This document shows, piece by piece, positions 1,465 to 50,056 of a stretch of 56,260 nt of DNA. Source of the DNA: a virus. Taxonomy: Duplodnaviria; Caudoviricetes. Below the pieces are notes generated by a model. That model did not search any database and was not told where the DNA came from. It saw only the letters and a list, made by a program, of their open reading frames with translations. Made by a program: the position numbers and the translations under genes. The first letter of the stretch is position 1. The number at the start of each line of letters is the position of its first letter. The stretch is taken from IMG/VR virus record IMGVR_UViG_3300042564_007410, positions 1 through 56,260 of that record. One strand, written 5' to 3'.

Positions 1465-2397
1465 ATGAGACTAGGATATTGTTGTATAAATTTAAGCCTA
1501 AAGGAGCAGGGCGTCACTACTAATAGAGGCATGGTTCGCAAAACATTTGATGAAAAAGGATTGGCCCACGTAAGTAAGCTAGTCATTGAAAATCTAACAG
1601 ATCTTTTAACTATTATGAGTTGGAATGCTCTAAATGGAGTCCATGTCTATCGAATGTCAAGTGATCTCTTTCCATGGATGAGTGAATATCAATTTGAAGA
1701 CCTGCCTAATTTTGAAACCATTTCTGATCTTGCAAAAAAAGTAGGCAAATTTTCACATATTTACGATCAACGTCTCTCTTTTCACCCTGGACAATTTGAT
1801 GTACTTGCCTCCCCCAATCCAGAAGTAGTCCGCAAAACTATTTATGACTTGGACCAGCATGCTCGTATTATGGATCTAATGGAGCTTCCTCAAAATCACT
1901 ATTCGGCTATTAATATTCATATTGGTGGTTCCTATGGAGACAAGCAATCTGCACTAGAGAGATTTTGTACTAATTTCAAGCAATTAGCCCCCTCAACAAG
2001 AGCTCGACTAGTAGTTGAAAATGATGACAAAGCAAGCCAATTTGGAGTACTTGATCTTTTTGAGGGAGTCTACAATAAAGTATGCTGCCCTATTACATTT
2101 GACCATTTTCATCATCGTTTTTGTACAAATGGAATTACCTCTACTCAAGCTGCTCAATTAGCTGCTTCTACTTGGGGAGAAATTATACCTTTACAACACT
2201 TTTCTAGCTCTAAAGCTCTATATGAAGATTCATCAGTAATTAATCGTTCCCATGCAGACTATGTTTACGATACTATTCCAAATTATGGATTTGAGGCAGA
2301 TGTTGAAATAGAAGCTAAAGCCAAAGACTTAGCCCTACTTAGATATAGATTAGGTGAAGGTATTTTTACCCAAGAGTTAAAATTTGAATTTGAATAA
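1465..2397 (+). CDS. uvsE: UV DNA damage endonuclease
   Basis: MRLGYCCIN, YRMSSDLFP, RLSFHPGQF, VENDDK, FDHFHH, HADY, EAKAKD. Confidence 0.92.
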   Translation: MRLGYCCINLSLKEQGVTTNRGMVRKTFDEKGLAHVSKLVIENLTDLLTIMSWNALNGVHVYRMSSDLFPWMSEYQFEDLPNFETISDLAKKVGKFSHIYDQRLSFHPGQFDVLASPNPEVVRKTIYDLDQHARIMDLMELPQNHYSAINIHIGGSYGDKQSALERFCTNFKQLAPSTRARLVVENDDKASQFGVLDLFEGVYNKVCCPITFDHFHHRFCTNGITSTQAAQLAASTWGEIIPLQHFSSSKALYEDSSVINRSHADYVYDTIPNYGFEADVEIEAKAKDLALLRYRLGEGIFTQELKFEFE

Positions 2398-2398
2398 T

Positions 2399-2899
2399 AT
2401 GAAAGCAAAACTAGTTAAAAGAAGTAATGGTAGATTTGATTTATATGAAATTAAAGACGTAGATCAATTAAATACAATTGCATCATCATTTGATAATCCA
2501 ATGGGAAAGCTATCACTTAAAAACTGCCAAGAAATTGAACGTGGTTATGATTTGGATGAGTTGGTTAAAGTATTTCATGAACAACATAAATTTGCTTCAT
2601 CACATATTGCGGATATAACAAGTTTTAAATTGGGTTTCCAAAAAGCACTTGAGTTGATGGGTGATAAAAAGTTTAGTGAAGAAGATATTGATGAAGCATT
2701 TGACGTTGGTCATGAAATGCTAGATTCACCAAAAAATTATAACGATGTTTTAAATTCTTTTAAAGAATCATTACAACAAACTGAATGGGATGTTGAGATT
2801 GAAATGGAATATCAAAGTTTTGAAGAAGATGGTAAACTAAGAGAAGCATATTTACCGAAACTTAATGCAGATAGTTGCTTAATACTAAGAAAATTATGA
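2399..2899 (+). CDS. Hypothetical phage protein
   Basis: ORF tightly packed in the operon; ATG at 2399 preferred. Confidence 0.6.
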   Translation: MKAKLVKRSNGRFDLYEIKDVDQLNTIASSFDNPMGKLSLKNCQEIERGYDLDELVKVFHEQHKFASSHIADITSFKLGFQKALELMGDKKFSEEDIDEAFDVGHEMLDSPKNYNDVLNSFKESLQQTEWDVEIEMEYQSFEEDGKLREAYLPKLNADSCLILRKL

Positions 2900-3360
2900 G
2901 AAGTGATATAGTATATGATGAATGGATTCCATATGTTGACTATGAGAAAGCTGAATGTGATGTTAAATTAAAAGATGGTACTATCGTCTATCACTGTTGG
3001 CCAAATGCTGGTAAGTTTAATCCACTATGTTCTTCAACAATAGATTTTATTGAAGAAAAAGTTGTAGTAGAAATCCGTTACAGAAGATATTATCCTGATA
3101 ATTTATGTAAAAGTAATTGCAATGGAGATAATCCAAAAGGTGACAGAGACCTAAGACTAGTAGATTTAATAGAACCTAATAGAGAACTTGATTTAGATGA
3201 ACTCACAGATTGGAATAGTTATAGTGATACTACTTGGAGTAATATTCCTATGTATAACCCACCATTTGTTAGAGAAGAGCCCAAGACCCAAAGAAATGAA
3301 CTATGTCCCTGTACTTCAGGTAAAAAATATAAAAAATGTTGTATTAATAAAAAATTATGA
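2896..3360 (+). CDS. SEC-C motif (zinc-binding) protein
   Basis: C-terminal RNELCPCTSGKKYKKCC; ATGA overlap with the upstream ORF. Confidence 0.75.
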   Translation: MRSDIVYDEWIPYVDYEKAECDVKLKDGTIVYHCWPNAGKFNPLCSSTIDFIEEKVVVEIRYRRYYPDNLCKSNCNGDNPKGDRDLRLVDLIEPNRELDLDELTDWNSYSDTTWSNIPMYNPPFVREEPKTQRNELCPCTSGKKYKKCCINKKL

Positions 3361-3605
3361 AAACAGTTGTTTGCATAAATGATAAAAATTTACCTGAAGG
3401 TGCTTGCGTAGTTGAGGGTAAAGAATATCAAGTAGAGACAGAATACCTTAATTCATTTGATCAAAGAGTCTATATTATTTCAGGTATTGTAAATAAAGGC
3501 ACTACTAAAATGGGTATGCGATGGATCGGATATGATGCACTTAGATTTAAAGAAACCAATAGTTCAAGTGTAAGTAAAAAAGAATACGCATTTGCACTAA
3601 ATTAA
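3357..3605 (+). CDS. Hypothetical protein
   Basis: ATGA-coupled 82-aa ORF. Confidence 0.6.
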   Translation: MKTVVCINDKNLPEGACVVEGKEYQVETEYLNSFDQRVYIISGIVNKGTTKMGMRWIGYDALRFKETNSSSVSKKEYAFALN

Positions 3606-3606
3606 T

Positions 3607-4116
3607 ATGGGAACAAACTATTATAGAATACCAACTGAAGCTGAAATGCTTGAGAAAAAAAGGAAACTTCAAGAGAGGATAGAGAACTTAGATGTGTCTC
3701 TTGGAACAATTGAGAGAGGTTTTAGTACACTAGAAAATGGTGAATCTAATTGGGATTACCACTCACCTTGGAGCGAATTTATTGAGGGAACTTCGATTCA
3801 TCTTGGAAAACGCAGCGGCGGATGGAAGTTTTGCTGGAATTTCCATGAGAATAAGTATTACACCAACAAGGAAGAACTTTTAGCTTTTATTCGTAGTGGT
3901 CGAATCGTCAATGAATACGGAGAAGAGCAAGAAGTTGAAGAGTTTATTGAAATGGCCCTTACTTGGGGAGAGCCTGATGGCTTCATATATGACCAAGCTT
4001 ATCTTGATTACATGAAAAAAGAGGGCTATCATCGAGATTATAGTTTAGACCCGTCTAAATATTTTGATCGTATTGTAGATGGACTTAGAGTATCAACATC
4101 AACTGAATTTAGTTAA
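3607..4116 (+). CDS. Hypothetical phage protein
   Basis: MGTNYY start and HLGKRSGGWKF motif typical of phage hypotheticals. Confidence 0.7.
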   Translation: MGTNYYRIPTEAEMLEKKRKLQERIENLDVSLGTIERGFSTLENGESNWDYHSPWSEFIEGTSIHLGKRSGGWKFCWNFHENKYYTNKEELLAFIRSGRIVNEYGEEQEVEEFIEMALTWGEPDGFIYDQAYLDYMKKEGYHRDYSLDPSKYFDRIVDGLRVSTSTEFS

Positions 4117-4117
4117 A

Positions 4118-4468
4118 ATGAAACATATTAGTTTTTTAGCATATCGATTATCAACTGTCACTGATGACCAATTAACAATTGGTTTATTATACTCAGATGA
4201 TAACAATGAAATTACTTCACTTATTTCAGATGAGAGACTAAAAATTCTTAAAAAACTAGTTGCTCCTCATATGTATAAACATTTTTGCCTTTACATAAAA
4301 GCACTACGTAATAATAATATTAAATTAGCTGATCTTGAATACTTAAGCGTTTATCAAAACGGTTTTATTAAGATAGCTAAACCTGGACCATTTGGTGGTG
4401 ATCTTACTCAAGCCCAACAAGTATTTGAAAAATTTGTAAATAAAAACTATAAAGAAAATGGAAATTAA
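4118..4468 (+). CDS. Hypothetical protein, weak DUF3037-like resemblance
   Basis: ATG at 4118 directly after the previous stop. Confidence 0.5.
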   Translation: MKHISFLAYRLSTVTDDQLTIGLLYSDDNNEITSLISDERLKILKKLVAPHMYKHFCLYIKALRNNNIKLADLEYLSVYQNGFIKIAKPGPFGGDLTQAQQVFEKFVNKNYKENGN

Positions 4469-5072
4469 ATTTGCTGACTCATTTTTTGACTCAATCAAAA
4501 AGATGAATAACCATCAACGCTGGTATTGGAAAACATGGGACTTTTTCCGATATGACTTACCAAAGGGAATCAAAAATATCTTCTTCTTTTGGAGAGTAAT
4601 TTGGAGATATCGTTCATGGGATTCAAGTTTTCAAATGACAATATTAGCTCGATCTCTTGAACCACTGGCTCATACTCTAGAATATCATGGTAACGAAGTA
4701 GATGGCCCAAGATTAAAAAAAGTAGCTAAAATTAAAAGAGCTATTGAGATTCTAAACCGACAAGTCAATGATGACTATATTAATCTTGCTGAAGAGCGAT
4801 TAGGATCTACTGTAAATACCTCATATGGAATTTTCGGTGATAATCCTGAGGAGAACGAACCACTTGAAATAAAAGAGATGAATCGTAAAATATTTGCTCT
4901 ATCTGATGAACTTGAAGAGCAAGAGTGGGAAGAATTATTTACTATACTCAAAGGCCAAAACCATAATGCCTATGTAATGCTTTGCGATAAAGCAAAAGAA
5001 GAAGGTGACATTAATCGAGATATTTGGGATCAATGGTTTGATGGCACAGGTATGAGAGGCTGGTGGGATTAA
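4458..5072 (+). CDS. Hypothetical phage protein
   Basis: 204 aa, Trp-rich, ending GMRGWWD. Confidence 0.7.
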   Translation: MEIKFADSFFDSIKKMNNHQRWYWKTWDFFRYDLPKGIKNIFFFWRVIWRYRSWDSSFQMTILARSLEPLAHTLEYHGNEVDGPRLKKVAKIKRAIEILNRQVNDDYINLAEERLGSTVNTSYGIFGDNPEENEPLEIKEMNRKIFALSDELEEQEWEELFTILKGQNHNAYVMLCDKAKEEGDINRDIWDQWFDGTGMRGWWD

Positions 5073-5083
5073 AAAATAAAAAT

Positions 5084-5323
5084 ATGAAAAATTTAAAATT
5101 AGTATTAGTAGTAATTGGAATTTTAACTATTTGGTTTATAATTGTATTTCTTATTCGTAGAGAATCAAAAGTTTGTGATACTCTAGTCTATGTTAAAGGA
5201 GAATTACCAATTGAAGCAACCATTGTTCACAGTTATAGTAATGGCTTTACTTCTATCAAGTTATGCAACGGCGGCTATGTCATTTATCATAGTAACCAAA
5301 TACTTAAAGTTATTGAAAAGTAA
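5084..5323 (+). CDS. Small membrane-anchored hypothetical protein
   Basis: N-terminal hydrophobic helix LVLVVIGILTIWFIIVFLI. Confidence 0.55.
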   Translation: MKNLKLVLVVIGILTIWFIIVFLIRRESKVCDTLVYVKGELPIEATIVHSYSNGFTSIKLCNGGYVIYHSNQILKVIEK

Positions 5324-5364
5324 AACCTTCTACTTATTAAGTAGTTAATATTAAAAACATTAAA

Positions 5365-6099
5365 ATGTATACACCAGTAGAATTAGCAAAAGTCGTATTC
5401 TTTGATTTGGAAACAGCATCAGAATACAAATCGCTTGATCAGCTTGCGATTGAAAAACCAAAAATGGCAGAATTATGGGCAAACCGTTGTGAATATCTTC
5501 GTTCCAGATTTGAAGAGAATCGTGATTTAACCGATGAACAATTATATGAAACAAAAGCAGCACTATCTCCTGAATTTGCTCGAATTGTTTGTGCAACATT
5601 TGGAAGATTATCTTTTATTGGAGATGACCCAAGTGTGATCCTAAAAAGTTACTGTTCGGAACACGAAGATGAAGTCCTAGATGGAATTCAAAAAGTATTT
5701 GACAAATTTGCAGCTTTAAAATTCTCTGGACACAATATCAAAAGATTCGATATTCCAATGATGTGTAAACGTCTCCTAATCCACGGAAGAACATTACCAA
5801 AAGGTTTGCAAGTAGCTAATCTAAAACCTTGGGAAATGCCATTTATTGATACTTCAGAATTATGGAGCTTTGGTGCATGGCAAGAAGGATTTGTTTCTCT
5901 TGAATTATTAGTTACTTCACTTGGTCTTGAAACTCCAAAGGGTGATATTAAAGGTGAAGAGGTAAGCCGAGTATTTTGGCAAGAAGGGGACACTCAAAGA
6001 ATTTCTGAATATTGCCAACGTGATGTTTTTGCTGGAATTCAAACTCTTTTAAAACTTTCAGGACTTACTGTAGTAGAAGAGTTTGAGACACAACCTTAA
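5365..6099 (+). CDS. Stand-alone PolB-type DEDD 3'-5' exonuclease
   Basis: FFDLET (ExoI), GHNIKRFDIP (ExoII), YCQRDV (ExoIII). Confidence 0.85.
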   Translation: MYTPVELAKVVFFDLETASEYKSLDQLAIEKPKMAELWANRCEYLRSRFEENRDLTDEQLYETKAALSPEFARIVCATFGRLSFIGDDPSVILKSYCSEHEDEVLDGIQKVFDKFAALKFSGHNIKRFDIPMMCKRLLIHGRTLPKGLQVANLKPWEMPFIDTSELWSFGAWQEGFVSLELLVTSLGLETPKGDIKGEEVSRVFWQEGDTQRISEYCQRDVFAGIQTLLKLSGLTVVEEFETQP

Positions 6100-6101
6100 T
6101 A

Positions 6102-8494
<2,393 letters not shown>

Positions 8495-8515
8495 GACCAA
8501 CCAATATTAAAAAGT

Positions 8516-8545
8516 AAAAGAGATAGGAAACTATCTCTTTTTTTT
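8516..8545 (+). terminator. Intrinsic terminator
   Basis: AAAAGAGATAG-GAAA-CTATCTCTTTT followed by a T run. Confidence 0.85.
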
Positions 8546-8600
8546 ATTTTACAAGAAACTTTATACTAATTTAGTTGTATAAATTATAAATTAATTCGGA

Positions 8601-9758
8601 ATGACAACAATTGACCAATTCAAAAACGTAGGTAAATATAATACAAGTATTAAACTTACACCAGAGGACACTAAAGCAAAAGTAAAGATCTTTTGTCATG
8701 AGCCTTATGCGCAAGAGTTATATGATGCTATGGCAAAATATGAAAATAGCTCAAGTGTAACAACTAAAGATTTAAAAGAAAACGAAGTCTATAGAGTTAG
8801 AGCAAACACTATTTCATTTGATGATAAAATGATCTATGCTGAAGAGGTAGGCTCGCATACACCAATTATTGTTCCATTTAGAGAATACTCAAAGGATCTT
8901 AATTCACTATCTAGTGGAGAAAATAGAGATTTCCTTGTAATGGTTTACAAATCAACAAAGCACGGTGAAAATTTTGGATCCGAAAAGAAAGCACTATCTG
9001 TTTCATATAAACAAGAATTATTTAATAATCTTAATGAGAACACATGGTTTGATGTAACTATCACTAAATTAATTAAAGGTGGATACTTAGCTCTTTACAA
9101 GAAAGAAATTGAGTGTTTTATTCCAGGATCCCATGCAGCTGCAAACGTTGTGCATAACTTTAATGATATGCTTAATAAAACTCTTACTGTGATGGTAGAC
9201 AACTATGATCAATCAAATGACCTGTTCATCCTATCATACAAAAAATATGTTGCTGAATCAATGTCAACTATGATTGGCAATTTATCATTTAATAAAGAGT
9301 ACACTGGTGTTCTTACAAATAAACCATATGACTTTGGAGCATTTGTTGAAATCGACGGTTACTTTACTGGACTAGTTCATCAAACTGAATTTAAAGATTA
9401 TGATGCTATTAGAAAAACATTAAAAACTGGCGATACTCTAAAAGTATACGTTAAGGATATTACTTCAAAGGGTAATCAATTTAGAATTGTACTTACTCTT
9501 AATCCTGAGAGCGTAAATTCTGAAAAACTTGCATGGCAACTACTTAAAGAGAAAACTGAAGGTAAAAGCTTTACCTATGATATTGATGCTAAGAAAAATT
9601 CAATTTCAATTAATATTGATGGTGAAAGCTATGAAGTATCTTTAAAGAGAAAAGAATTAGAAAAAAATCTAAGCGCTTTTCCGTATGTTAAAGTTTCTAA
9701 AGTAGATATCCTAAACAAGAGTCTAAAATTTGAATTTGTGGAAGATCTTGAAAATTAA
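8601..9758 (+). CDS. S1 RNA-binding domain protein, ribosomal protein S1-like
   Basis: Two clear S1/OB repeats: ITKLIKGGYL..CFIPGSH and DFGAFVEIDGYFTGLVHQTE. Confidence 0.75.
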   Translation: MTTIDQFKNVGKYNTSIKLTPEDTKAKVKIFCHEPYAQELYDAMAKYENSSSVTTKDLKENEVYRVRANTISFDDKMIYAEEVGSHTPIIVPFREYSKDLNSLSSGENRDFLVMVYKSTKHGENFGSEKKALSVSYKQELFNNLNENTWFDVTITKLIKGGYLALYKKEIECFIPGSHAAANVVHNFNDMLNKTLTVMVDNYDQSNDLFILSYKKYVAESMSTMIGNLSFNKEYTGVLTNKPYDFGAFVEIDGYFTGLVHQTEFKDYDAIRKTLKTGDTLKVYVKDITSKGNQFRIVLTLNPESVNSEKLAWQLLKEKTEGKSFTYDIDAKKNSISINIDGESYEVSLKRKELEKNLSAFPYVKVSKVDILNKSLKFEFVEDLEN

Positions 9759-21878: not shown

Positions 21879-22106
21879 ATGGATCCAATTAAAGGCGAGG
21901 GAAAACCTCAATTAAATATTAACCTATCTGATGCACCATATCTAGAATGCGAAGAGTGTCAAGGCAAAGTATTTGATGAAAAAATGATGATTAAAAAAGT
22001 TTCCAAATTTATGACAGGCTCTGAACAGGATTCAATTGTTCCTGTTCCTGTACTTGCTTGCTCTAAATGTGGTCATGTTAACGAAATGTTTAAACCAAAA
22101 ATATGA
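21879..22106 (+). CDS. Small zinc-ribbon protein
   Basis: CEEC and CSKC pairs. Confidence 0.7.
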   Translation: MDPIKGEGKPQLNINLSDAPYLECEECQGKVFDEKMMIKKVSKFMTGSEQDSIVPVPVLACSKCGHVNEMFKPKI

Positions 22107-23524
22107 TAATAGGCGCTGAAGTATTAAATGATAATATTTTAACTATCTCTTACTACAACGATAAGGGAAAAATTGAATTCATTAAAAAAAGATTAATGGA
22201 TCATGAAATGTATAATTGGGTAGAATCTAAAACTCCAACCGCCACTAAAAATTGGAATGGAGCACACGTGAAAAAAGGTCAATCTGCTGGACAATACATA
22301 AATCAATTTAGAATACAAGAATTAATTCAAGAAAAATTAACAGCAGAGGAACTTGAGCTAGTTTACAATTTTGATAATTTTCCTAAAAAGACTTATCTTG
22401 ATATTGAGATTAAATTAATTGATGATTCCTTTCCAGAACCAGAAAAAGCTAGAATGCCAGTTGGACTTATTTCATTTTGTAATGAAGATAATGTTACCTA
22501 TATTCTCTCTATCTTAAATACAGACGATCAGCCAGATGGTCTTACTCCAGAACAAATAGTTCAAATGGAAAAAGACGTTAATTCATATTTTAGAAAAACT
22601 GTTCCTAAGAAACCAGAAGATGCTCGTTTATTCAATCAAGACTTTAAAATTAAATATAAATTCTTTAAAAGTGAAGATGAGTTAATGGCTTTCTATTTTC
22701 ATAAAATTATGCCTCATTTTAATTTTGTGACTGGATGGAACGTAACTGAATTTGACTGGAAGTATTTAATGAATCGTGGTAAAAATCTTAAAATCGATAT
22801 GATGGAGAATATGCCAACTCGTTCAACTGTTTCTAAAGTTAAGATTCCAACTCATCTAGGTGTACTTGATTACATGCAAGTATTTGAAAAGATGAAACCA
22901 TATAAAGTTGTAGAAAACTATAAACTTGATTATATTGCTGATCTTGTTCTAGGCACAGCCAAATTACATCATGATTATTCTTCATTCATGGAATTTCAAA
23001 AAGATACCTATCTTTTTACTATGTATAACGTAATTGACGTTATTCTTGTAAAATTAATTGAGGATAAGCTTGCACTAATGGACGTAGCCTTTGCTATGGC
23101 AAATGTCGCTCAAGTAGAAGTAAACAAAGTATTTAGTCCAGTATATATTGCTGAGATCTTAATGTGTCGTGAATTCCTAAATAAGAATCAAAAAATGATG
23201 AAACTTCCTTGGGGAGAAGAGGTACTTGATGGAACCTATGCTGGAGCTTATGTAAAAGATCCAATTCCAGGTTATTATAATGCTATTGCATGTTATGACT
23301 TTTCATCAATGTATCCAAATATTCAAATTCAATTTAATATTTCGCCAGATACTTTCCTTGGAAAAACTGATCAAGTTAAGCGAGATGGAACTGAAATCCA
23401 TACTAAAAATGATACACTATTTTCAAATAAAAGTGATTCAGTTGCTCGAAAAATTCTTACTCGACTCTATGATGAGCGTATAAAAACCCAAGGCGAAATT
23501 AAACAATTAAAAAATTCAAAATAA
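22103..23524 (+). CDS. Family B DNA polymerase, N-terminal subunit (exonuclease plus motif A only)
   Basis: LDIE, GWNVTEFD, YNVIDV, YAGAYVKDP, DFSSMYP; stops in the fingers with no motif B or C. Confidence 0.85.
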   Translation: MIIGAEVLNDNILTISYYNDKGKIEFIKKRLMDHEMYNWVESKTPTATKNWNGAHVKKGQSAGQYINQFRIQELIQEKLTAEELELVYNFDNFPKKTYLDIEIKLIDDSFPEPEKARMPVGLISFCNEDNVTYILSILNTDDQPDGLTPEQIVQMEKDVNSYFRKTVPKKPEDARLFNQDFKIKYKFFKSEDELMAFYFHKIMPHFNFVTGWNVTEFDWKYLMNRGKNLKIDMMENMPTRSTVSKVKIPTHLGVLDYMQVFEKMKPYKVVENYKLDYIADLVLGTAKLHHDYSSFMEFQKDTYLFTMYNVIDVILVKLIEDKLALMDVAFAMANVAQVEVNKVFSPVYIAEILMCREFLNKNQKMMKLPWGEEVLDGTYAGAYVKDPIPGYYNAIACYDFSSMYPNIQIQFNISPDTFLGKTDQVKRDGTEIHTKNDTLFSNKSDSVARKILTRLYDERIKTQGEIKQLKNSK

Positions 23525-42688: not shown

Positions 42689-43483
42689 ATGCCAGAACTA
42701 GCCGAAATAAAAATAATGGCTGATTATATTAATCAGAGTATTGTTGAAGATCTTGATTTTACTACAATTGCTTATTCAGAAAGTGCAGGTAAGCGCGGTT
42801 TAGGGGTAATCCAACCTAGTGATCTTCAAATATTTAAAATCCAGGCTCAATCTAGAGGTAAGGAACTTATGCTTTCTCTAATTCAGGGAGGAGAGGAACT
42901 TATGAAAATTAGCTGTTCAATGGGCATGTCTGGTCACTGGCACCTAGCTAATCGATTTAATCCTCCCAAGCATACTCACCTAATGTTTAATGCAGTTGGT
43001 GATATTAGCCTATGCTTGGTTGATGTTCGTCGCTTTGCTCGATGGCGACTAGTTGATGATTGGTCCTCTACTCGCGGCCCATGTCCACTAATGGAACCTG
43101 CTCTATTTCGAGAAAATATCCTAGCTAATCTTCATAAGAAAGAATTCGATAAGCCGATTCATCTTGTGCTCATGAATCAATTATATTTTTCAGGAATAGG
43201 AAATTACCTCAGAGCTGAGATACTCTTCCATGCCTCACAGGATCCTTTCATAGACGCACGTACTGCCCTTACTATGAATCCATCAATTCTAGATCTTTGT
43301 GAGCAACTTCCAAAGGAAGCTTATATTCTTGGTGGAGGACAACTTAAGGATTGGGATAATCCATTTGAGGTACCTTCTGGCGGATTTAATGAATGGATTC
43401 AGTGCTATGGTAAGGCCAATCGAATAGTCGATAAGAACGGTCGAACTCTATGGTATCATACAAGTCAACTTGAAACTCTTTAA
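42689..43483 (+). CDS. Fpg/Nei family DNA glycosylase/AP lyase, NEIL1-like
   Basis: N-terminal PE, RGKEL, GMSG, DVRRF, H2TH GIGNYLRAEIL, zincless finger DKNGRTLWY. Confidence 0.88.
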   Translation: MPELAEIKIMADYINQSIVEDLDFTTIAYSESAGKRGLGVIQPSDLQIFKIQAQSRGKELMLSLIQGGEELMKISCSMGMSGHWHLANRFNPPKHTHLMFNAVGDISLCLVDVRRFARWRLVDDWSSTRGPCPLMEPALFRENILANLHKKEFDKPIHLVLMNQLYFSGIGNYLRAEILFHASQDPFIDARTALTMNPSILDLCEQLPKEAYILGGGQLKDWDNPFEVPSGGFNEWIQCYGKANRIVDKNGRTLWYHTSQLETL

Positions 43484-43509
43484 AATTTTTGAGTTTTAAT
43501 AGTGTAACC

Positions 43510-43517
43510 TATAAATA
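43510..43517 (+). promoter_or_regulatory. T4-type late promoter TATAAATA
   Basis: Exact T4 consensus just upstream of ATG 43525. Confidence 0.45.
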
Positions 43518-43524
43518 AAAAAGA

Positions 43525-43707
43525 ATGTTAAAAAAAATATTTCAATCGCGTCTTTCAAAAAGGGAACTTTTAATAATCGCTGAATGTTGTAGACAAGTTT
43601 CTGATTCAATGAGTAAGGAAAATAATAAAAGTCCCCTCTCTCCTGAAATTAGTCAAATACACCAAGATATTCAACAAATAGTTAAAAAACTGGAAAAATC
43701 TAAATGA
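43525..43707 (+). CDS. Hypothetical protein
   Basis: 60 aa; its TGA overlaps the ATG of the next ORF. Confidence 0.55.
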   Translation: MLKKIFQSRLSKRELLIIAECCRQVSDSMSKENNKSPLSPEISQIHQDIQQIVKKLEKSK

Positions 43708-43868
43708 CCGAAATCCCTCTTGAGTTTTCACCAAGACCCCAACAGGTAGAAATACTTGATTTTGTAAAATCTTCAATTAGTGAAGGTAAAAAATTTATCA
43801 TGGTTGATGCTCCGACCGGGTGTCTTACAAAAAATGAAAAAATTAGAATATATAAATTAAAAAAATGA
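43704..43868 (+). CDS. DinG/XPD-like helicase N-extein (39 aa) plus split-intein N fragment (15 aa)
   Basis: MTEIPLEFSPRPQQVEILDFVKSSISEGKKFIMVDAPTG|CLTKNEKIRIYKLKK*: Q motif, half Walker A, then intein block A. Confidence 0.88.
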   Translation: MTEIPLEFSPRPQQVEILDFVKSSISEGKKFIMVDAPTGCLTKNEKIRIYKLKK

Positions 43869-43871
43869 TTT

Positions 43872-45068
43872 ATGGATTCTAATAAGTATCTTGAAATTTG
43901 TAGAAGCGCTCGACTGCTTAAAAATAACATATCGTATTTTACAGTAAAGGAATTTTTGGAAAAATTTAAAATTGACTTAAATATAAATTATGATAAAATT
44001 GATCAGTTAATCGCTAATATTTTATCTCAAGATTTATCAAATGAGCATATTACGCTTCAAAAATTAAATTTAAAGTATAAAAAAACATCTAAGGATTATT
44101 GGATTATTCGAGGATGGGATGAAAAATATTCAATCAGAAAAGCAAAAGAAGCAAATCAGATATATTCTCATTCAAGAAGACTAGAGAAAAATGGATATTC
44201 TCAGGAAGATATTAAGAAGATCATGGCTGATTCTTTTAGTAAAGGAATCGCTACTCTCAAGAAAAGAAAAGATTATTCAGATATTATTAAAAAACGAAAT
44301 AGGGGATTAACTCGAAATCGATATATTAATACAATAAATCCATTAACCGGATTATTATATACGTCTGAAGAATCTGAGAAAAAATATAAAGAAGATCAAC
44401 GAAAGGCTTCGCAGTCTGCAAATCTAAGTAGGAAGCCTGAATCATTTAATACTAAAATCGAATATTATTTAGCTAAGGGCTTATCTTTAGAAGATGCCCA
44501 ATCTGCTCTATTTGAACGCCAAATAAAAAATGGTCTAGACTATTATATCAATAAATATGGAATAGAACAGGGAACCGTTAAATATAATAATCGTATTGCA
44601 AAATACAGTAAAAAAATAAAAGATGCAAGATCGTCTTTTCCAGAAAAATGGAAAACTTCCAGTAAACGATATAGTAATAGTTCTAAGCGATTTTTTGATA
44701 ACTTAATTAATGATATTGATTATCTAAAAAATTTAACTATTTTCTATGCAAATAACGAACATTTCATATATGATAAAATCAATAAAAAAATATATTTTTA
44801 TGATTTTTATATTGAAGAATTAAATATTATAATTGAATATCATGGAATAGTCTGGCATCCTAAGCATCGTGATCAACCTGGCTGGATCCACCCATATACT
44901 AAGGAGACTTCTGAAAAATACTATGATTTAGATATTCATAAAAAAATACTTGCAAATAGTTTTGGTATTGATGTTATCGCAATATTTGAAGATGAGATAA
45001 CAACTAATCGTAATAATATAATAAATGAACTACACAATCGAATTAACACGTACCGTAATCGTAAATGA
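43872..45068 (+). CDS. Free-standing putative homing endonuclease, Vsr/DUF559-like
   Basis: C-terminal FYDFYIEELNIIIEYHGIVWH; basic N-terminal repeats; lies between the intein halves. Confidence 0.75.
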   Translation: MDSNKYLEICRSARLLKNNISYFTVKEFLEKFKIDLNINYDKIDQLIANILSQDLSNEHITLQKLNLKYKKTSKDYWIIRGWDEKYSIRKAKEANQIYSHSRRLEKNGYSQEDIKKIMADSFSKGIATLKKRKDYSDIIKKRNRGLTRNRYINTINPLTGLLYTSEESEKKYKEDQRKASQSANLSRKPESFNTKIEYYLAKGLSLEDAQSALFERQIKNGLDYYINKYGIEQGTVKYNNRIAKYSKKIKDARSSFPEKWKTSSKRYSNSSKRFFDNLINDIDYLKNLTIFYANNEHFIYDKINKKIYFYDFYIEELNIIIEYHGIVWHPKHRDQPGWIHPYTKETSEKYYDLDIHKKILANSFGIDVIAIFEDEITTNRNNIINELHNRINTYRNRK

Positions 45069-46986
45069 TTTAAAACATTATTATAGTGACGAAATATTTA
45101 TTAATTTATCTGATTTTGACCTAAATGAATTTTTTACAAACCATGTCAATACTCATAGTGAGGAAATAACAATTAAAGATTTCTATGAGTTACCTGAAGA
45201 TTCACATTTATTAATTGAATCATTGGATGGATATGTTAGAGTTGGTGAACGAATAAAAAAGAATAACTTAGAGTGCTATACTTTAACTTTAAAAGATAAT
45301 CGTAAATTATCTGGTGCATTTAATCATTTAGTTGAAACTGAAAGAGGCTGGGTTAAATTAAAAGAACTATCATCCAGTGATTATGTTTTAACTACTTCTG
45401 GTTTTATTCAAGTAAAAAATATACGACAAATTAAAACGCAAGACGTTTATGATTTAGAATGTTTACATCCAAACCATCGATATTTATCAAATGGCATATC
45501 TAATCACAATACTGGAAAATCTTATGCTGCAATTATGATCGCTGAATGGTATCGCAGTGAACATTCAAAAAAAGCAAAAACTGATATTGTAACAAATACT
45601 AAAATTCTACAGGATCAATACGTAAAGGATTTTAAATTTGCCGCAAATCTTAAGGGTAAGAATAACTATTGGTGTCGTACTCAAAATATGGGATGCGGTG
45701 ATGCACAAGTTATCAATAAAGCAAATGGTGCTCGCTGTAATATTTGTCCACATAAAATTGCACAATCTAAATTCTTAAAGAGCCCAGTAAGTCTTGCTAA
45801 TTTCCACCTAGTAACTGCCTATTCAATGTATTCACCAGATATGATGATTGAGCGTAGTTCTAAACTTTTAATTATTGATGAGGCACACGCTTTTGAAGAG
45901 ACATTTTGTGATTTTATTCTCTCTACCTATTCTGAACGAAGTTTAAAAATACTTGATGTATGGCAAGAGTGGATGGGGCGGGATCTTGACAATATTTCAT
46001 CACTTAGTGAATTATCTGATTGGACAAAAGACGTATTAGTTCCACTACTTGGCCAAAAGGCAGAAGACCTATTAGATGAGGCTAAGGAAACTAGAGCTAA
46101 GAAGAAAAAGATTGAACTAATTAAAAAAGCAGATCATGTTGATAAATCAATGTGCAAATACAATCGTTTTGTAAATGATAGAGAAAACTATAAAACAAAT
46201 TGGACTTTCGAAAAGGATATTGACCAATACGGCAAAACTAAAATTCTAGTTGAACCTATTTGGGGAAACCTATATCTTAAAGAATTATTTTGGGACCAAT
46301 ATGACCATGTAATCTTAATGTCAGGTACACTATTAGATCGTGAACTATTTTCATTTATTATGGGAATTGAGGATCATGAATCTACTTATTTAGCACTGCC
46401 TTGTCCATTTAAAGCAGAGTCTCGTCCAGTAATCTATGCAAAATTTGGTAAAATGTCATACTACAATAAAAAGGAGACATTTGCTAGAGCTGTGCCAATT
46501 ATTGGAAAGATTCTTGAAAAGAATCATGAGCATAAAGGAATTATCCATACTTCAAATTATGAACTTAGTAAATGGATTCAATCTTCAATTAAAGACAAGC
46601 GACTCTTATTTCATGACTCACTTACTCGTGAAAAAACATTAGAGACTCATTTAACCTCTCAATTAGAGACTGTCCTAGTTTCACCATCCATGATAAATGG
46701 TGTCGACTTAAAGGATGAACTTTCTCGTTTTCAAGTAATCCTAAAAATACCTTTTCCTAATCTTGTTAGTACAAAGATTAAACGCCGACTTGATACTCGT
46801 CCAGAATGGTATAATTGGAAGACCCTGGTTGATCTTCTTCAAGCATATGGTAGATCAATCAGAAATGATGACGATTGGGCAGAGACATATATCTTAGACG
46901 AATGTTTTGATCAAATCCTTGAAAATAAAAATGTTCCTCAATATTTCCTAGATGCACTTAAAATTAAAAAATTACTTAAAAAATGA
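45025..46986 (+). CDS. Split-intein C fragment (about 162 aa) plus DinG/XPD-like helicase C-extein
   Basis: SGAFNH (block B), VYDLE..HRYLSNGISNHN|TGKS; LQDQY, LKGKNNY, four Cys for FeS, DEAH, MSGT, GVD, QAYGRSIR. Confidence 0.9.
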   Translation: MNYTIELTRTVIVNDLKHYYSDEIFINLSDFDLNEFFTNHVNTHSEEITIKDFYELPEDSHLLIESLDGYVRVGERIKKNNLECYTLTLKDNRKLSGAFNHLVETERGWVKLKELSSSDYVLTTSGFIQVKNIRQIKTQDVYDLECLHPNHRYLSNGISNHNTGKSYAAIMIAEWYRSEHSKKAKTDIVTNTKILQDQYVKDFKFAANLKGKNNYWCRTQNMGCGDAQVINKANGARCNICPHKIAQSKFLKSPVSLANFHLVTAYSMYSPDMMIERSSKLLIIDEAHAFEETFCDFILSTYSERSLKILDVWQEWMGRDLDNISSLSELSDWTKDVLVPLLGQKAEDLLDEAKETRAKKKKIELIKKADHVDKSMCKYNRFVNDRENYKTNWTFEKDIDQYGKTKILVEPIWGNLYLKELFWDQYDHVILMSGTLLDRELFSFIMGIEDHESTYLALPCPFKAESRPVIYAKFGKMSYYNKKETFARAVPIIGKILEKNHEHKGIIHTSNYELSKWIQSSIKDKRLLFHDSLTREKTLETHLTSQLETVLVSPSMINGVDLKDELSRFQVILKIPFPNLVSTKIKRRLDTRPEWYNWKTLVDLLQAYGRSIRNDDDWAETYILDECFDQILENKNVPQYFLDALKIKKLLKK

Positions 46987-48146
46987 AATTAAAAAATTTT
47001 AATCAGTATTTAACAGAATCTGTTAATTCAACAACTTATTTTCAACCTCATTATTTTAATTTGCCCTATTCTATACCAGAGGACAGATTCAAAGACGGCT
47101 TATTAAAATCAAATACTTATAGAAAAACAAGTAATAGTCGATCTTTTAGTGAAAGTAAGTCTACATATTCATCAATTGACGAATTTCTTGAAAAAAATCC
47201 AATTGCTAAAATTGAAAAGTCAATTATTGCTGAAGTCAATAAAGTTATTAAATTTATCAATAACAATAAATTAACTGGTAAAGAACTTGATGCATCATTT
47301 AGTCAAGAAATGGAATTTTCTGAGTATTTAGATGAAATTTTAGAAACGCCAGAAGAAGATATTCCATTTGGAATAATAGAAACAGGCTTGCCTTTTTCTA
47401 CTTTTTCAATTAGAGTAGACTATGACATTTATAAAAATATTCCAGTTTTTACCTTTTGGTATGATGGTGATCTTTTTTATTATTATGGAGTATTTACTTT
47501 AGAATCAAATGATGTGAGTGGTTCAGGTGAAAATCATACTTATATTACTTCAACTGAATTAATTGATTATCTTTTTTATGAAACTGTTTGGAGAGCAGCA
47601 GTTTCTGAATTAAATTACTTAAGTATTGAACCAGTTTCAGTCAATGTTAAAGATGAGGAGTTTGATAGACTTAGCGAAATTACAAATGATCCAAATTATT
47701 CAAATCAAATAGTAAAAAACTATTTTGATAAAAACTTTATACAACTTTTAAAAAGATGGATAAAAAATGATGATCCAACTTCTGAAGATACACAAGGGAT
47801 AAAATTTAATTATAAAATTCTTGAAGAATTTACTCATATGAGTTTTCCTGGAGATGCCGGTACAGTACTATCGGCTTCTAGCGGACCTTATGAATTTGCG
47901 TCTTCTGGAAAAAATAGTTTTATCATTCGGCTTCTTTCATTTTGGGATAAAGAAGATATGTATCTTGCAATTAGATTTATATTTAATTCTCAAGATGGTC
48001 TAATTAGTATTGAATCTGCTGATTATTCAACTTCTGATGATTGGAATAAAGTAGATTGGAAACAATTAACCCAAGCTGAAATAAATACTCTATATGTTTT
48101 TGATAAAAGAGGAAAGGCAGTATGGATACAAAATTTAATGAATTAA
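46983..48146 (+). CDS. Hypothetical protein with capsid-targeting-like leader
   Basis: Starts MKLKNFNQYLTES. Confidence 0.65.
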   Translation: MKLKNFNQYLTESVNSTTYFQPHYFNLPYSIPEDRFKDGLLKSNTYRKTSNSRSFSESKSTYSSIDEFLEKNPIAKIEKSIIAEVNKVIKFINNNKLTGKELDASFSQEMEFSEYLDEILETPEEDIPFGIIETGLPFSTFSIRVDYDIYKNIPVFTFWYDGDLFYYYGVFTLESNDVSGSGENHTYITSTELIDYLFYETVWRAAVSELNYLSIEPVSVNVKDEEFDRLSEITNDPNYSNQIVKNYFDKNFIQLLKRWIKNDDPTSEDTQGIKFNYKILEEFTHMSFPGDAGTVLSASSGPYEFASSGKNSFIIRLLSFWDKEDMYLAIRFIFNSQDGLISIESADYSTSDDWNKVDWKQLTQAEINTLYVFDKRGKAVWIQNLMN

Positions 48147-48187
48147 TATTTCATAAAAGAACTAAAGATAAAAATTACCAAAAAGTA

Positions 48188-50056
48188 ATGGCTAAAAAAG
48201 CAATAGAGAGTAAATACCAAAAATTAACAGATACTGAACACGTTTTACTTAGACCATCTATGTATATTGGATCAGTTGCGACCCATACTGGAGATCAGTA
48301 TCTTTATGATGGAGAAAAAGTAATAGTTAGCGAAGTTAACTATAATCCAGGTTTTATTAAATTATTTGATGAAATCGTCTCAAATTCAGTGGATGAACAT
48401 CGCCGTAATTCTAAATTAAATGAGATTAGAGTAACTATTAATTTAGATAGTACTGAAATTTCAATTTGGGATAATGGTGGAATTCCAGTAGAGAAGCACC
48501 CAGTCCATAAAGAGTGGATTCCTGAAATGATTTTTTCAAATCTAAAAGCTGGATCTAATTTTGATGACACTGAACAACGAACTGTTGCTGGTACAAATGG
48601 TGTAGGTTCAACCCTAACTAATATCTTTAGTAAAAAATTCTCAATATCTACCTGTGATGGTAAAAATAGGTTCGACCAAACCTTTACTGATAATATGGGT
48701 AAGCGAACCCCTGCTAAAATTACTCCAGCTAAGAGAGGATTTACTGAAATTTCATTTTTTCCAGACCTAGAGAGGTTTAAAATGCAAACGATTGATGAAA
48801 CCTCATTTCAAATACTATTTAAACGCTGTTTGGACCTAGTTGCATGTAATAATAAGTTGACATTAAAGTTAACTAAGATTAGTAATACAGAAAAGACTGA
48901 ATATACTCTTCGATTTAAGAGTTTTGAGGAGTATATTCAATTATATGCAGAAGAATATTTCTTTGAAGAGTCAAAGGATTGGAAAATTGGCTTTGCTAAA
49001 TCTGAAAATGGCTTTCAAAATGTGAGTTTTGTTAATTCAGTTCATACAAAAGATGGTGGAACTCATGTAGATTATATCACTAATCAATTGATTACACAAT
49101 TACGAGAAATGATTAAGAAAAAACACAGGGTTGATGTTAAGCCAAGCGATATCCGAAATCATCTCTATGTTTTTATTGATTCAACTGTTGTAAACTCATT
49201 CTTTAGCTCACAAACTAAGGAAAAATTAATTACAGAAGTTAAAGATTTTGGTACTCGACATGAAGTTACTGATAAATTAGCAAAACTTATATTCAAATCT
49301 GATATTATTCAATCTGTACTTGATTGGATTGAGAAAAAAGAGCTTGCTCAAGAGAGAGCTGAGCTTCGAAAGCTAAATAAGGACCTAGATAAGACTAAAA
49401 TTCCTAAATTAATCGATGCACAGAAAAAAGGTGATCGTGGAACCTGTATCCTAGGTATTTATGAAGGACTTTCCGCAGTTTCAGCAGTTCGTAAGTTTAG
49501 AGACACTCAAATAATCGGTGCATTTCCTCTAAAAGGTAAATTTATCAATATTAGTGAGATGAAACCCTCTGAAATTGCTAAAAATGATGAGGCTGTACAA
49601 TTAATGGCCTCACTAGGCTTAAAATTAGGCGAAGAACCTAAAGGATTACGATATGGTCGCATCTATATTTATACTGATGCTGATCCAGATGGAAGTCACA
49701 TTGCAGCAACCTTAATTAACTTCTTTAATCGCTTTTGGCCTGAATTATTTGATCAAGGTCGAGTATATAAAGTAATGACTCCATTAGTTGTTGCTAAAAA
49801 AGGCAAAGAGTCGCTTAATTTTTATACAAATGATGAATTTGATAAATGGTTAAAGAAGAATAAGACTAGTGCATGGAATATTGAATATAAAAAGGGACTT
49901 GGCGCGCTTGAAGATGCTGAATATGAAGAAATTATTAAAAATCCATATTTAGTTCAAATCAAGAACGATAAAGACTATAAAGAATCACTTGAATCATGGT
50001 TTGGTAAGGATTCTCAACCTCGAAAAGAGAGAATACTTGAAAATAATAAAGATTAA
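48188..50056 (+). CDS. Type IIA topoisomerase large subunit (ATPase plus TOPRIM; gp39+gp60 fused)
   Basis: EHVLLRPSMYIGS, EIVSNSVDE, DNGGIP, GTNGVG, EGLSA, PLKGK, DADPDGSHI, KGLG. Confidence 0.95.
   Translation: MAKKAIESKYQKLTDTEHVLLRPSMYIGSVATHTGDQYLYDGEKVIVSEVNYNPGFIKLFDEIVSNSVDEHRRNSKLNEIRVTINLDSTEISIWDNGGIPVEKHPVHKEWIPEMIFSNLKAGSNFDDTEQRTVAGTNGVGSTLTNIFSKKFSISTCDGKNRFDQTFTDNMGKRTPAKITPAKRGFTEISFFPDLERFKMQTIDETSFQILFKRCLDLVACNNKLTLKLTKISNTEKTEYTLRFKSFEEYIQLYAEEYFFEESKDWKIGFAKSENGFQNVSFVNSVHTKDGGTHVDYITNQLITQLREMIKKKHRVDVKPSDIRNHLYVFIDSTVVNSFFSSQTKEKLITEVKDFGTRHEVTDKLAKLIFKSDIIQSVLDWIEKKELAQERAELRKLNKDLDKTKIPKLIDAQKKGDRGTCILGIYEGLSAVSAVRKFRDTQIIGAFPLKGKFINISEMKPSEIAKNDEAVQLMASLGLKLGEEPKGLRYGRIYIYTDADPDGSHIAATLINFFNRFWPELFDQGRVYKVMTPLVVAKKGKESLNFYTNDEFDKWLKKNKTSAWNIEYKKGLGALEDAEYEEIIKNPYLVQIKNDKDYKESLESWFGKDSQPRKERILENNKD

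Follow-up and report, generated by a model that had tools for sequence, protein, structure and literature searches.

The stretch of viral DNA analysed here (IMG/VR record IMGVR_UViG_3300042564_007410; all 56,260 bases of it are referred to as the window) carries a gene for a Rad3/DinG-like helicase in two separate pieces. It is highly probable that this is a fractured gene, in which a class-1 intein has been inserted into the Walker A motif (between G39 and the threonine at +1) and the intein gene itself is broken after its first block by the free-standing gene of a Vsr-like homing endonuclease; the helicase would then be rebuilt by protein trans-splicing. We observed the anatomy of the locus, its conservation, purifying selection on its parts, empty and unbroken alleles of the same site and a signature of mobility, and the fractured gene is real and, to judge from the sequence, probably working.

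Two helicase open reading frames (ORFs) lie on the same strand, each bearing one half of an intein, and a free-standing endonuclease ORF lies between them, which is the arrangement that defines a fractured gene. The parts are listed in Table 1, where IntN and IntC denote the N- and C-terminal pieces of the intein and the exteins are the flanking helicase parts. The ORF with the N-extein (N-ORF, 43704-43868) encodes 54 amino acids (aa), and that with the C-extein (C-ORF, 45025-46986) encodes 653 aa, opens at the first codon 3' of an in-frame TAA and reaches T163 at 45511. The 3' end of the endonuclease gene overlaps IntC by 44 nucleotides (nt), the cassette from the start of IntN to the end of IntC measures 1.69 kb (43821-45510), and both exteins together make 530 aa.

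Table 1. Parts of the fractured helicase locus and their positions in the window
Feature	Position	Strand	Evidence
N-extein, Rad3/DinG-like helicase residues 1-39, with DAPTG (first half of Walker A) at the end	43704..43820	+	gapless alignment to N-termini of uninterrupted homologues
IntN, 15 aa (C40-K54 of N-ORF) from Cys1, 43821-43865, followed by TGA 43866-43868	43821..43868	+	ORF translation, relatives
Predicted free-standing homing endonuclease gene, 398 aa: helical N-terminal region and C-terminal Vsr-like (EDxHD-type) domain at ~265-398	43872..45068	+	34 homologues
IntC, 162 aa: conserved extension of ~44 aa, then blocks B, F and G, ending HN	45025..45510	+	VidaL match
C-extein, 491 aa, from Thr+1 (TGKS): four conserved Cys, DEAH box, Helicase_C_2; stop included	45511..46986	+	Pfam

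A sequence-only reading of this DNA had proposed that the first ORF encodes the helicase Q motif and DAPTG, some further residues and then a stop, that the last one opens with the rest of a HINT domain ending in HN and continues with TGKS and the helicase, and that joining them gives an intact Walker A (DAPTG-TGKS) in a protein of about 530 aa. The coordinates and residues of both ORFs held, the start of the C-ORF is homologous to the VidaL intein, and the joined motif is in register with 43 uninterrupted homologues. That the halves are separate ORFs around a 398-aa endonuclease was also correct, but the endonuclease was said to be in another frame, which is true with respect to the C-ORF only and not the N-ORF. 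The split intein was borne out by the VidaL match and the catalytic residues and needed one correction, as the split is atypical and the C-ORF holds all blocks but the first. The proposed DinG/XPD-type host agrees with the Helicase_C_2 and DinG 6fwr matches, and the proposed free-standing endonuclease with the Vsr-like residues and fold of the middle gene.

The Pfam model Helicase_C_2 matched the C-extein with 60.5 bits (cut-off 25.3), as did PHROG 2488, 'DNA helicase', at E 2.1e-85, and the only match of the helicase among PDB sequences was E. coli DinG (6fwr, E 5.8e-7). The C-extein contains an IIDEAH motif and four cysteines (C217, C224, C238 and C241) that are conserved in at least 90% of the aligned sequences; the Pfam DEAD_2 model scored 15.1 bits, below its cut-off of 21. 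Iron-sulfur helicases of the Rad3/XPD/DinG class have four cysteines between Walker A and Walker B as ligands of a 4Fe-4S cluster, a role for which those of the C-extein are candidates. For the N-extein a marginal match to XPD residues 22-58 was obtained (E 1.6), and Pfam and PHROGs gave no significant match to the N-ORF. The presence of Helicase_C_2, Walker A and the DEAH box together assigns the predicted host protein to the Rad3/DinG-type helicases of superfamily 2.

Scanning viral contigs for the locus, we recovered 74 loci. Loci L002-L047 (n=46) comprise 43 uninterrupted alleles reading APTG-x-GKS and three split ones, and the exteins of the split alleles abut in register with the uninterrupted sequences without any gap, so that the alignment to intein-free homologues that had been suggested as a check turned out as expected. 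This count leaves out L048, a C-terminal fragment, and the more distant L049-L075, at least five of which have uninterrupted P-loops. Removal of the insert restores the Walker A motif as APTG-TGKS. The residue at +1 is Val in 40 of the uninterrupted alleles, Thr in two and Ser in one; the codon at this position is ACT (Thr) in all three intein-bearing alleles.

The three-ORF layout is also found in L017, L018 and L020, whose helicases are 76-78% identical, and all of them keep the 54-aa N-ORF, the 398-aa middle ORF, the ORF joining IntC to the helicase and the 44-nt overlap. Of 476 candidates, 10 proteins matched at E <= 0.001 in a search with IntC within the whole ORF. Eight of these are IntC-first helicases of the same family and P0044 is an IntC-first protein of RecA/UvsX type, whereas P0041 (734 aa) carries the intein unbroken at the same site, with the residues of the N-piece connected by a 21-aa linker to those that begin IntC in the window. 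By the alignment to P0041, the endonuclease gene sits exactly at the short loop of its unbroken relative.

Among solved inteins the closest relative of IntC is VidaL (6vgv; E 9.6e-11, 45 bits, query 45-161 on chain 23-141), and weaker matches were found to Spl DnaX (E 1.4e-5) and gp41-1 (E 0.0036). Cys1 (C40, directly after DAPTG) is kept in 3/3 N-ORFs and in P0041. The histidine of block B (H101), the aspartate of block F (D143), the penultimate H161, the terminal N162 and Thr+1 (T163) are invariant in 12/12 aligned sequences. The IntN of the window is identical to that of L017 in 15/15 aa and to that of L020 in 14/15 aa, and it aligns to the start of the unbroken P0041 intein. The 45 nt encoding it (window 43821-43865 against L017:2795-2839) are 98% identical, compared with 63% in the adjoining N-extein; since this stretch adjoins the endonuclease start codon upstream, the 15 residues may not be the only constraint on its DNA.

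The nucleophile, the blocks, the similarity to solved inteins and the in-register excision all agree with a class-1 intein, that is a HINT domain, and splicing would be expected of it. IntC holds all intein blocks but the first, and since the break falls right after that block the split appears to be atypical and close to the N-terminus. With two separate ORFs, an IntN of 15 aa containing block A only and an IntC containing blocks B, F and G, the intein is classed by its sequence as atypically split of the S1 type, and, to judge from the length of IntN and the alignment to VidaL, the break may lie directly after β-strand 2. Searching the window with the Pfam intein model yielded a single sub-threshold match, inside the GroEL gene, which we took as chance, and missed the real intein; in the protein atlas the only label was 'intein-like viral proteins'.

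For the middle gene we found 34 homologues among 5464 candidates and aligned 30 of them, leaving out P0005, P0007, P0009 and P0010 as near-copies. E296, Y310, D311, E322, G325, H329 and K357 are invariant in the 30 sequences and D354 is conserved in at least 90%; the gene's own ATG start is kept in 30/30. In a profile alignment D311, E322, H324, W328, H329 and D354 correspond to D51, F62, H64, W68, H69 and the Asp of ERD in Vsr. The Vsr-like endonucleases of fractured genes have been defined by such aligned positions, including a Glu of their own at Vsr position 62 (PMC2677866; PMC3239194). An AlphaFold (AF2) model of the protein (pLDDT 85.7, pTM 0.45) consists of a helical N-terminal part and, at about 265-398, an alpha/beta domain, and in VIA-align model residues 265-398 superposed on ngo0050 (Z 9.1), Vsr 1cw0 (9.0), AbaSI (8.8) and I-Bth0305I (8.5). 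Because of this superposition and the conserved residues, we read the middle gene as encoding a putative Vsr-like (EDxHD-type) homing endonuclease, from which DNA cleavage would be expected. Single-sequence and profile searches against PDB sequences gave no significant match; the designed helical repeats and Csm2 that topped these searches are chance matches. Its PHROG matches were to families of unknown function only, and no second copy of the gene was found when we looked for one in the window. The window also has its lowest G+C content within this gene (0.273 at 44001-45000, with 0.30-0.34 in the neighbouring segments).

For the endonuclease gene, with the overlap excluded, the ratio of non-synonymous to synonymous substitution rates (dN/dS) was 0.18-0.22; IntC gave 0.08-0.17, and the C-extein, in the comparisons that allowed a calculation, 0.08. 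Such low values indicate purifying selection on every part of the locus. When L017 is compared with L020, the DNA identity is 93% in the endonuclease gene and 90% in IntC, compared with 72% in the C-extein and 73% in the N-extein. In 90-nt windows it steps from 0.6-0.7 up to 0.84-0.98 over positions 2808-4517 of L017 and then falls to about 0.7, a span that runs from the start of IntN to slightly past the end of IntC and so coincides with the borders of the cassette. The contrast between cassette and exteins is small when the window is compared with L017 (72-79% vs 63-73%). A helicase tree was built from 40 distinct C-exteins (54 rows before identical ones were merged), 13 of the rows bearing the intein. 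On the maximum-likelihood tree the presence of the intein requires 8 gains or losses, at least 6 of which are forced by well-supported branches, and 0/200 bootstrap trees allow a single origin; the helicases nearest to that of the window (92%) are intein-free. The identity step at the cassette borders and the patchy distribution of the intein on the tree indicate that the intein halves and the endonuclease gene act as one 1.69-kb mobile cassette.

The locus would work as follows. Three proteins would be made, namely the N-extein with its 15-aa IntN, the endonuclease, and the 162-aa IntC with the C-extein. The short IntN would dock onto IntC and complete the HINT fold, Cys1 would form a thioester, Thr+1 would attack this thioester and Asn162 would cyclise, releasing a 530-aa helicase with an intact APTGTGKS P-loop. 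The endonuclease may cut the intein-free alleles of co-infecting relatives, and repair would then copy the whole 1.69-kb cassette.

Several observations weigh against this interpretation. On the side of the intein, the Pfam model Intein_splicing scored IntC at 25.5 bits, below the curated cut-off of 35.8, block B has NH in place of the DH or TxxH of most relatives, and a structure model of the unbroken P0041 intein, built from a 7-row alignment, was too poor (mean pLDDT 42.6) to establish the fold or the position of the split. Most intein-free alleles have Val, which is no nucleophile, at +1; as splicing needs a nucleophile there, homing would have to co-convert the +1 codon. No RNA runs are among the listed holders of the stretch. 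On the side of the endonuclease, the similarity to Vsr in sequence falls short of significance by itself (E ~0.9), two mitoribosomal chains score like Vsr in VIA-align (Z 8.9 and 8.7), and Foldseek gave the model no match at E <= 0.001, its best matches having E values of 0.03-0.06 at probabilities of 0.99-1.00.

Some of these points would also suit a decaying or non-splicing remnant, in which the helicase is dead or the two polypeptides cooperate non-covalently, like the endonuclease-split NrdA of phage Aeh1. A ribonucleotide reductase has been described that is fragmented and yet assembles with no intein (PMC3045599), splicing of the helicase is here a prediction, and the Asn in block B is unusual. 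Such a two-piece enzyme would, however, be left without an intact ATP site because the break falls inside the P-loop. All catalytic residues of the intein are conserved, IntC and both exteins are under purifying selection, and the arrangement is kept in at least four diverged lineages and in eight further protein clusters. We therefore consider a remnant improbable.

The reading frames bear on another alternative, that read-through of the TGA fuses the endonuclease to the N-extein and IntN, giving a form halfway between free-standing and nested endonucleases. The endonuclease ORF of the window indeed shares the frame of the N-ORF (43872-43704 = 168), with only TGA and TTT between them, and is out of frame with the C-ORF only. 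In L017 and L020, however, the N-ORF ends in TAA, the spacer is 5 nt and the endonuclease is in a different frame. TGA is an ordinary stop that ends 13/53 ORFs of the window, for which reason we rejected a recoding of TGA, and the ATG of the endonuclease is kept, as noted, in all 30 aligned homologues. A fusion to the N-ORF is accordingly a distinctly unlikely reading of these sequences.

RNA splicing, which the sequence-only reading had wished to see excluded, is unlikelier again. Phage homing endonuclease genes are frequent in group I introns, and I-Bth0305I, of the same nuclease family, lies in one (PMC3239194), so that a group I or II intron carrying the endonuclease gene might remove the insert from the RNA. 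A search of 43300-45800 with Rfam at E <= 1 nevertheless returned no intron family, its sole match being a chance one to SIB_RNA. On either side of the insert the HINT blocks are encoded in frame and run exactly into the exteins, a join for which an intron has no need, and P0041 has the unbroken intein at the protein level.

Least credible of all is that sequencing or assembly errors broke one contiguous intein-endonuclease frame, a frameshift that the sequence-only reading had named as its refutation: the assembly is a low-coverage metagenomic one and a run of A stands just before the first stop, but contigs from three other studies are identical over both junctions, the relatives keep the stops with other codons and spacing, and the 44-nt overlap of the endonuclease and IntC frames is present in all three lineages. 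The stop of the N-ORF is at an unchanged position in the relatives with a different codon (TAA vs TGA). The contigs come from runs X2, X3 and X4 and cover the first junction at 43845-44032, 43820-43984 and 43650-43912 and the second at 44771-45600, 44636-45086 and 44467-45287, respectively, with 0 differing letters and 0 gaps. The exact match of these independent contigs at both junctions rules out a frameshift error, insofar as contigs can tell, and the layout, which recurs in the relatives, is more than chance.

A search of the full library with IntC gave 475 cluster representatives at E <= 0.001, 85 of them at <= 1e-10. In 147 of the best 150 relatives we found the junction pattern, HN followed by C, S or T, and a P-loop remnant of GK(S/T) type follows it in 119/147. 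The junction lies at most 200 residues from the ORF start in 112 of the best 150, and 109 of those ORFs begin with Met; the starts are those of the gene caller, and IntC-bearing ORFs alone were seen, apart from their partner N-ORFs. Pfam, run on 60 of the best 150, identified RecA in 15, AAA in 14, DnaB_C in 9, PhoH in 8 and Helicase_C_2, UvrD and PIF1 in one each, with intein domains only in 6 and nothing in 5; the matches to host domains start just past the P-loop. When 12 members, drawn from six host families, were aligned, all had the same blocks and none the first block. By its sequence, then, the intein of the helicase is a member of a large lineage that occupies the P-loops of RecA, PhoH, AAA+, DnaB and further ATPases.

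The extension of about 44 aa at the start of IntC (45025-45156) is conserved, and VidaL is without it. It is present in the DinG-, PhoH- and RecA-hosted members of the lineage and in one hosted by DnaB, and absent from the AAA-, PIF1- and ClpB-hosted members and from another DnaB-hosted one. A low-confidence model folds it as three helices.

These results can be joined in a wider proposal, for and against which we hold the case to be evenly balanced. The helicase alleles would represent three states of one mobile element at one site, namely empty, an unbroken mini-intein with a short loop after its first block (P0041), and the intein broken at that loop by a Vsr-like gene. On this view the endonuclease would create the atypical split by invading the loop. 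The lineage, mostly unnamed, would target the motif GxGK(S/T) after its first G and would have moved among at least six unrelated ATPase families (RecA/UvsX, PhoH, AAA+/clamp loader, DnaB, PIF1/UvrD and DinG), mostly as IntC-first ORFs, with the DinG-type helicase as a new intein host.

In a more distant relative, L076:1640-6252, the same helicase is fractured twice. The first break is at the P-loop, with an N-ORF at 1640-1861, the gene of a 402-aa Vsr-like endonuclease at 1833-3041 and an ORF with IntC at 3001-4158, and the +1 residue of this intein is Ser. The second break is at the DEAH box, where a canonical long IntN at the end of the middle ORF is followed by a 281-aa ORF (4166-5011) and by a short IntC, with Cys at +1, at the start of the ORF 5008-6252. 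Both intein halves and Helicase_C_2 are backed by Pfam.

VidaL (6vgv/6vgw) resembles the helicase intein in its Cys1 nucleophile, its very short N-piece and its naturally atypical split. The VidaL N-piece has 16 aa and the split lies just after β-strand 2, at the S1 position (PMC13014065). The crystallised chain ends in H-A-S-G-K, which suggests that VidaL, too, sits just before the xGK of a P-loop; its natural host gene is not given in PMC11185735. The intein described here differs in its IntN of 15 aa, in Thr at +1 (Ser in VidaL) and in the additional N-terminal residues of IntC, about 44 in number; VidaL has been characterised biochemically, whereas the helicase intein is known from sequence. 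The natural N-pieces of atypically split inteins span 15-37 aa (PMC13014065). PolB16 OarG shares the S1 split and an IntN of 15 aa, called the shortest characterised (PMC10189870), but it is cysteine-less (Ser1/Ser+1), resides in a PolB polymerase and comes from a sheep gut metagenome (PMC10189870); it is absent from the sequence matches of IntC. With gp41-1 the relation in sequence is weak but real (the E 0.0036 given above), and the fractured-gene context is shared. In the canonical split inteins of phages, such as gp41-1, the break is at the site of endonuclease insertion, IntN being 88-105 aa long and IntC 33-54 aa, unlike the break after block A seen here.

The layout itself is an established one. 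Fractured genes with split inteins, known already according to the sequence-only reading, were indeed published in 2009 by Dassa, London, Stoddard, Schueler-Furman and Pietrokovski for eight enzyme types (PMC2677866), their hosts including gp41, IMPDH, DnaE, NrdA, NrdJ, DNA ligase and terminase (PMC2677866). As in the helicase locus, these are phage loci with hosts from DNA metabolism, in which two ORFs carry the intein halves and a GIY-YIG or Vsr-like gene lies between them (PMC2677866). A terminase was reported there as 'fractured at an unusual point', with a C part of 122 residues containing every N-terminal motif except N1 (PMC2677866). In contrast to that survey, whose listed hosts do not include a Rad3/DinG helicase, we have empty, unbroken and split alleles and a signature of mobility. 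P-loop inteins, moreover, occur in many ATPases (PMC4760082). I-Bth0305I (3r3p) is a further point of comparison: the C-terminal domain of the endonuclease superposes on it (Z 8.5, rmsd, the root-mean-square deviation, 3.1, 96/97 residues, 20% identity), and both have the Asp/His/Asp positions of the EDxHD type, the Glu at Vsr 62 and a non-catalytic N-terminal region preceding the nuclease. I-Bth0305I differs in its setting, a group I intron of recA (PMC3239194), and searches of PDB sequences gave no significant match of the endonuclease to it.

We found no published Rad3/DinG/XPD intein host in the literature covered, which included the main text of Novikova 2016 and Kelley 2016, supplementary tables being outside its scope. 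Of the suggestion that the host might be new, then, that much stands, as no DinG-type host was found in print; the layout, the unusual break, N-pieces of 15-16 aa and the P-loop lineage were known. The locus is thus a new example of a described class, fractured genes, in which the DinG-type host alone was not found in print. The unusual break beside block A is common among P-loop inteins and no rarity, and the locus leaves the current understanding of inteins unchanged.

For annotation, the consequence is that the helicase should be called as one spliced product, predicted to have 530 aa; what gene callers report is a 54-aa ORF without annotation, a gene labelled 'hypothetical' and a helicase preceded by a leader of 162 aa. 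Intein biology gains a clean natural series of alleles (empty, unbroken, split by an endonuclease and, in L076, doubly fractured) that documents the joint travel of a free-standing endonuclease gene and a split intein as a cassette. N-pieces short enough for peptide synthesis are sought in split inteins (PMC13014065; PMC10189870), and for engineering the locus offers an intein related to VidaL, with Cys1, Thr+1 and an N-piece of 15 aa, besides hundreds of relatives. If the lineage works like VidaL, it would be a natural library of trans-splicing inteins for protein semisynthesis, with N-pieces of about 15 aa and Thr, Ser or Cys at +1.

The window record is linear, with a CheckV completeness of 22%, and has genes for a tail sheath, a major head protein, GroEL, ribonucleotide reductase, a DnaB-like helicase, RecA/UvsX, SbcCD and a type II topoisomerase. 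From this gene content and the CheckV value we conclude that it is a fragment of a large tailed (jumbo) phage genome. Among named phage records the top matches of its helicase are uncultured huge phages, at 36-37% identity, and the sequencing runs that hold the stretch are all labelled lake water, plankton or plain 'metagenome'. A scan of 43400-47200 for promoters and terminators gave 21 promoter-like sites, where shuffled sequences led us to expect 22.8, and no terminator, a result that is compatible with co-transcription and beyond that carries no information.

Elsewhere in the window, an ORF of 473 aa at 22103-23524 encodes the exonuclease domain of a family B DNA polymerase and, of the 453 positions of the polymerase model, 40-144 only. 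A search of the window brought up no other portion of a family B polymerase; the enzyme is either encoded in separate genes or runs beyond the fragment. Between the helicase and topoisomerase genes lies an ORF of 387 aa (46983-48146) without a Pfam or PHROG family, and in L017 and L020 the topoisomerase gene follows directly after the helicase gene. The topoisomerase gene of the window (48122-50056) is uninterrupted. The adjoining type II topoisomerase gene of L017, by comparison, is fractured too (L017:5957-9643): a long IntN after YEGL is followed by a 380-aa ORF (7789-8931), which has no Pfam family and matches PHROG families whose function is unknown, and then by a 42-aa IntC, which ends in HN before a Ser and leads into the rest of the topoisomerase.

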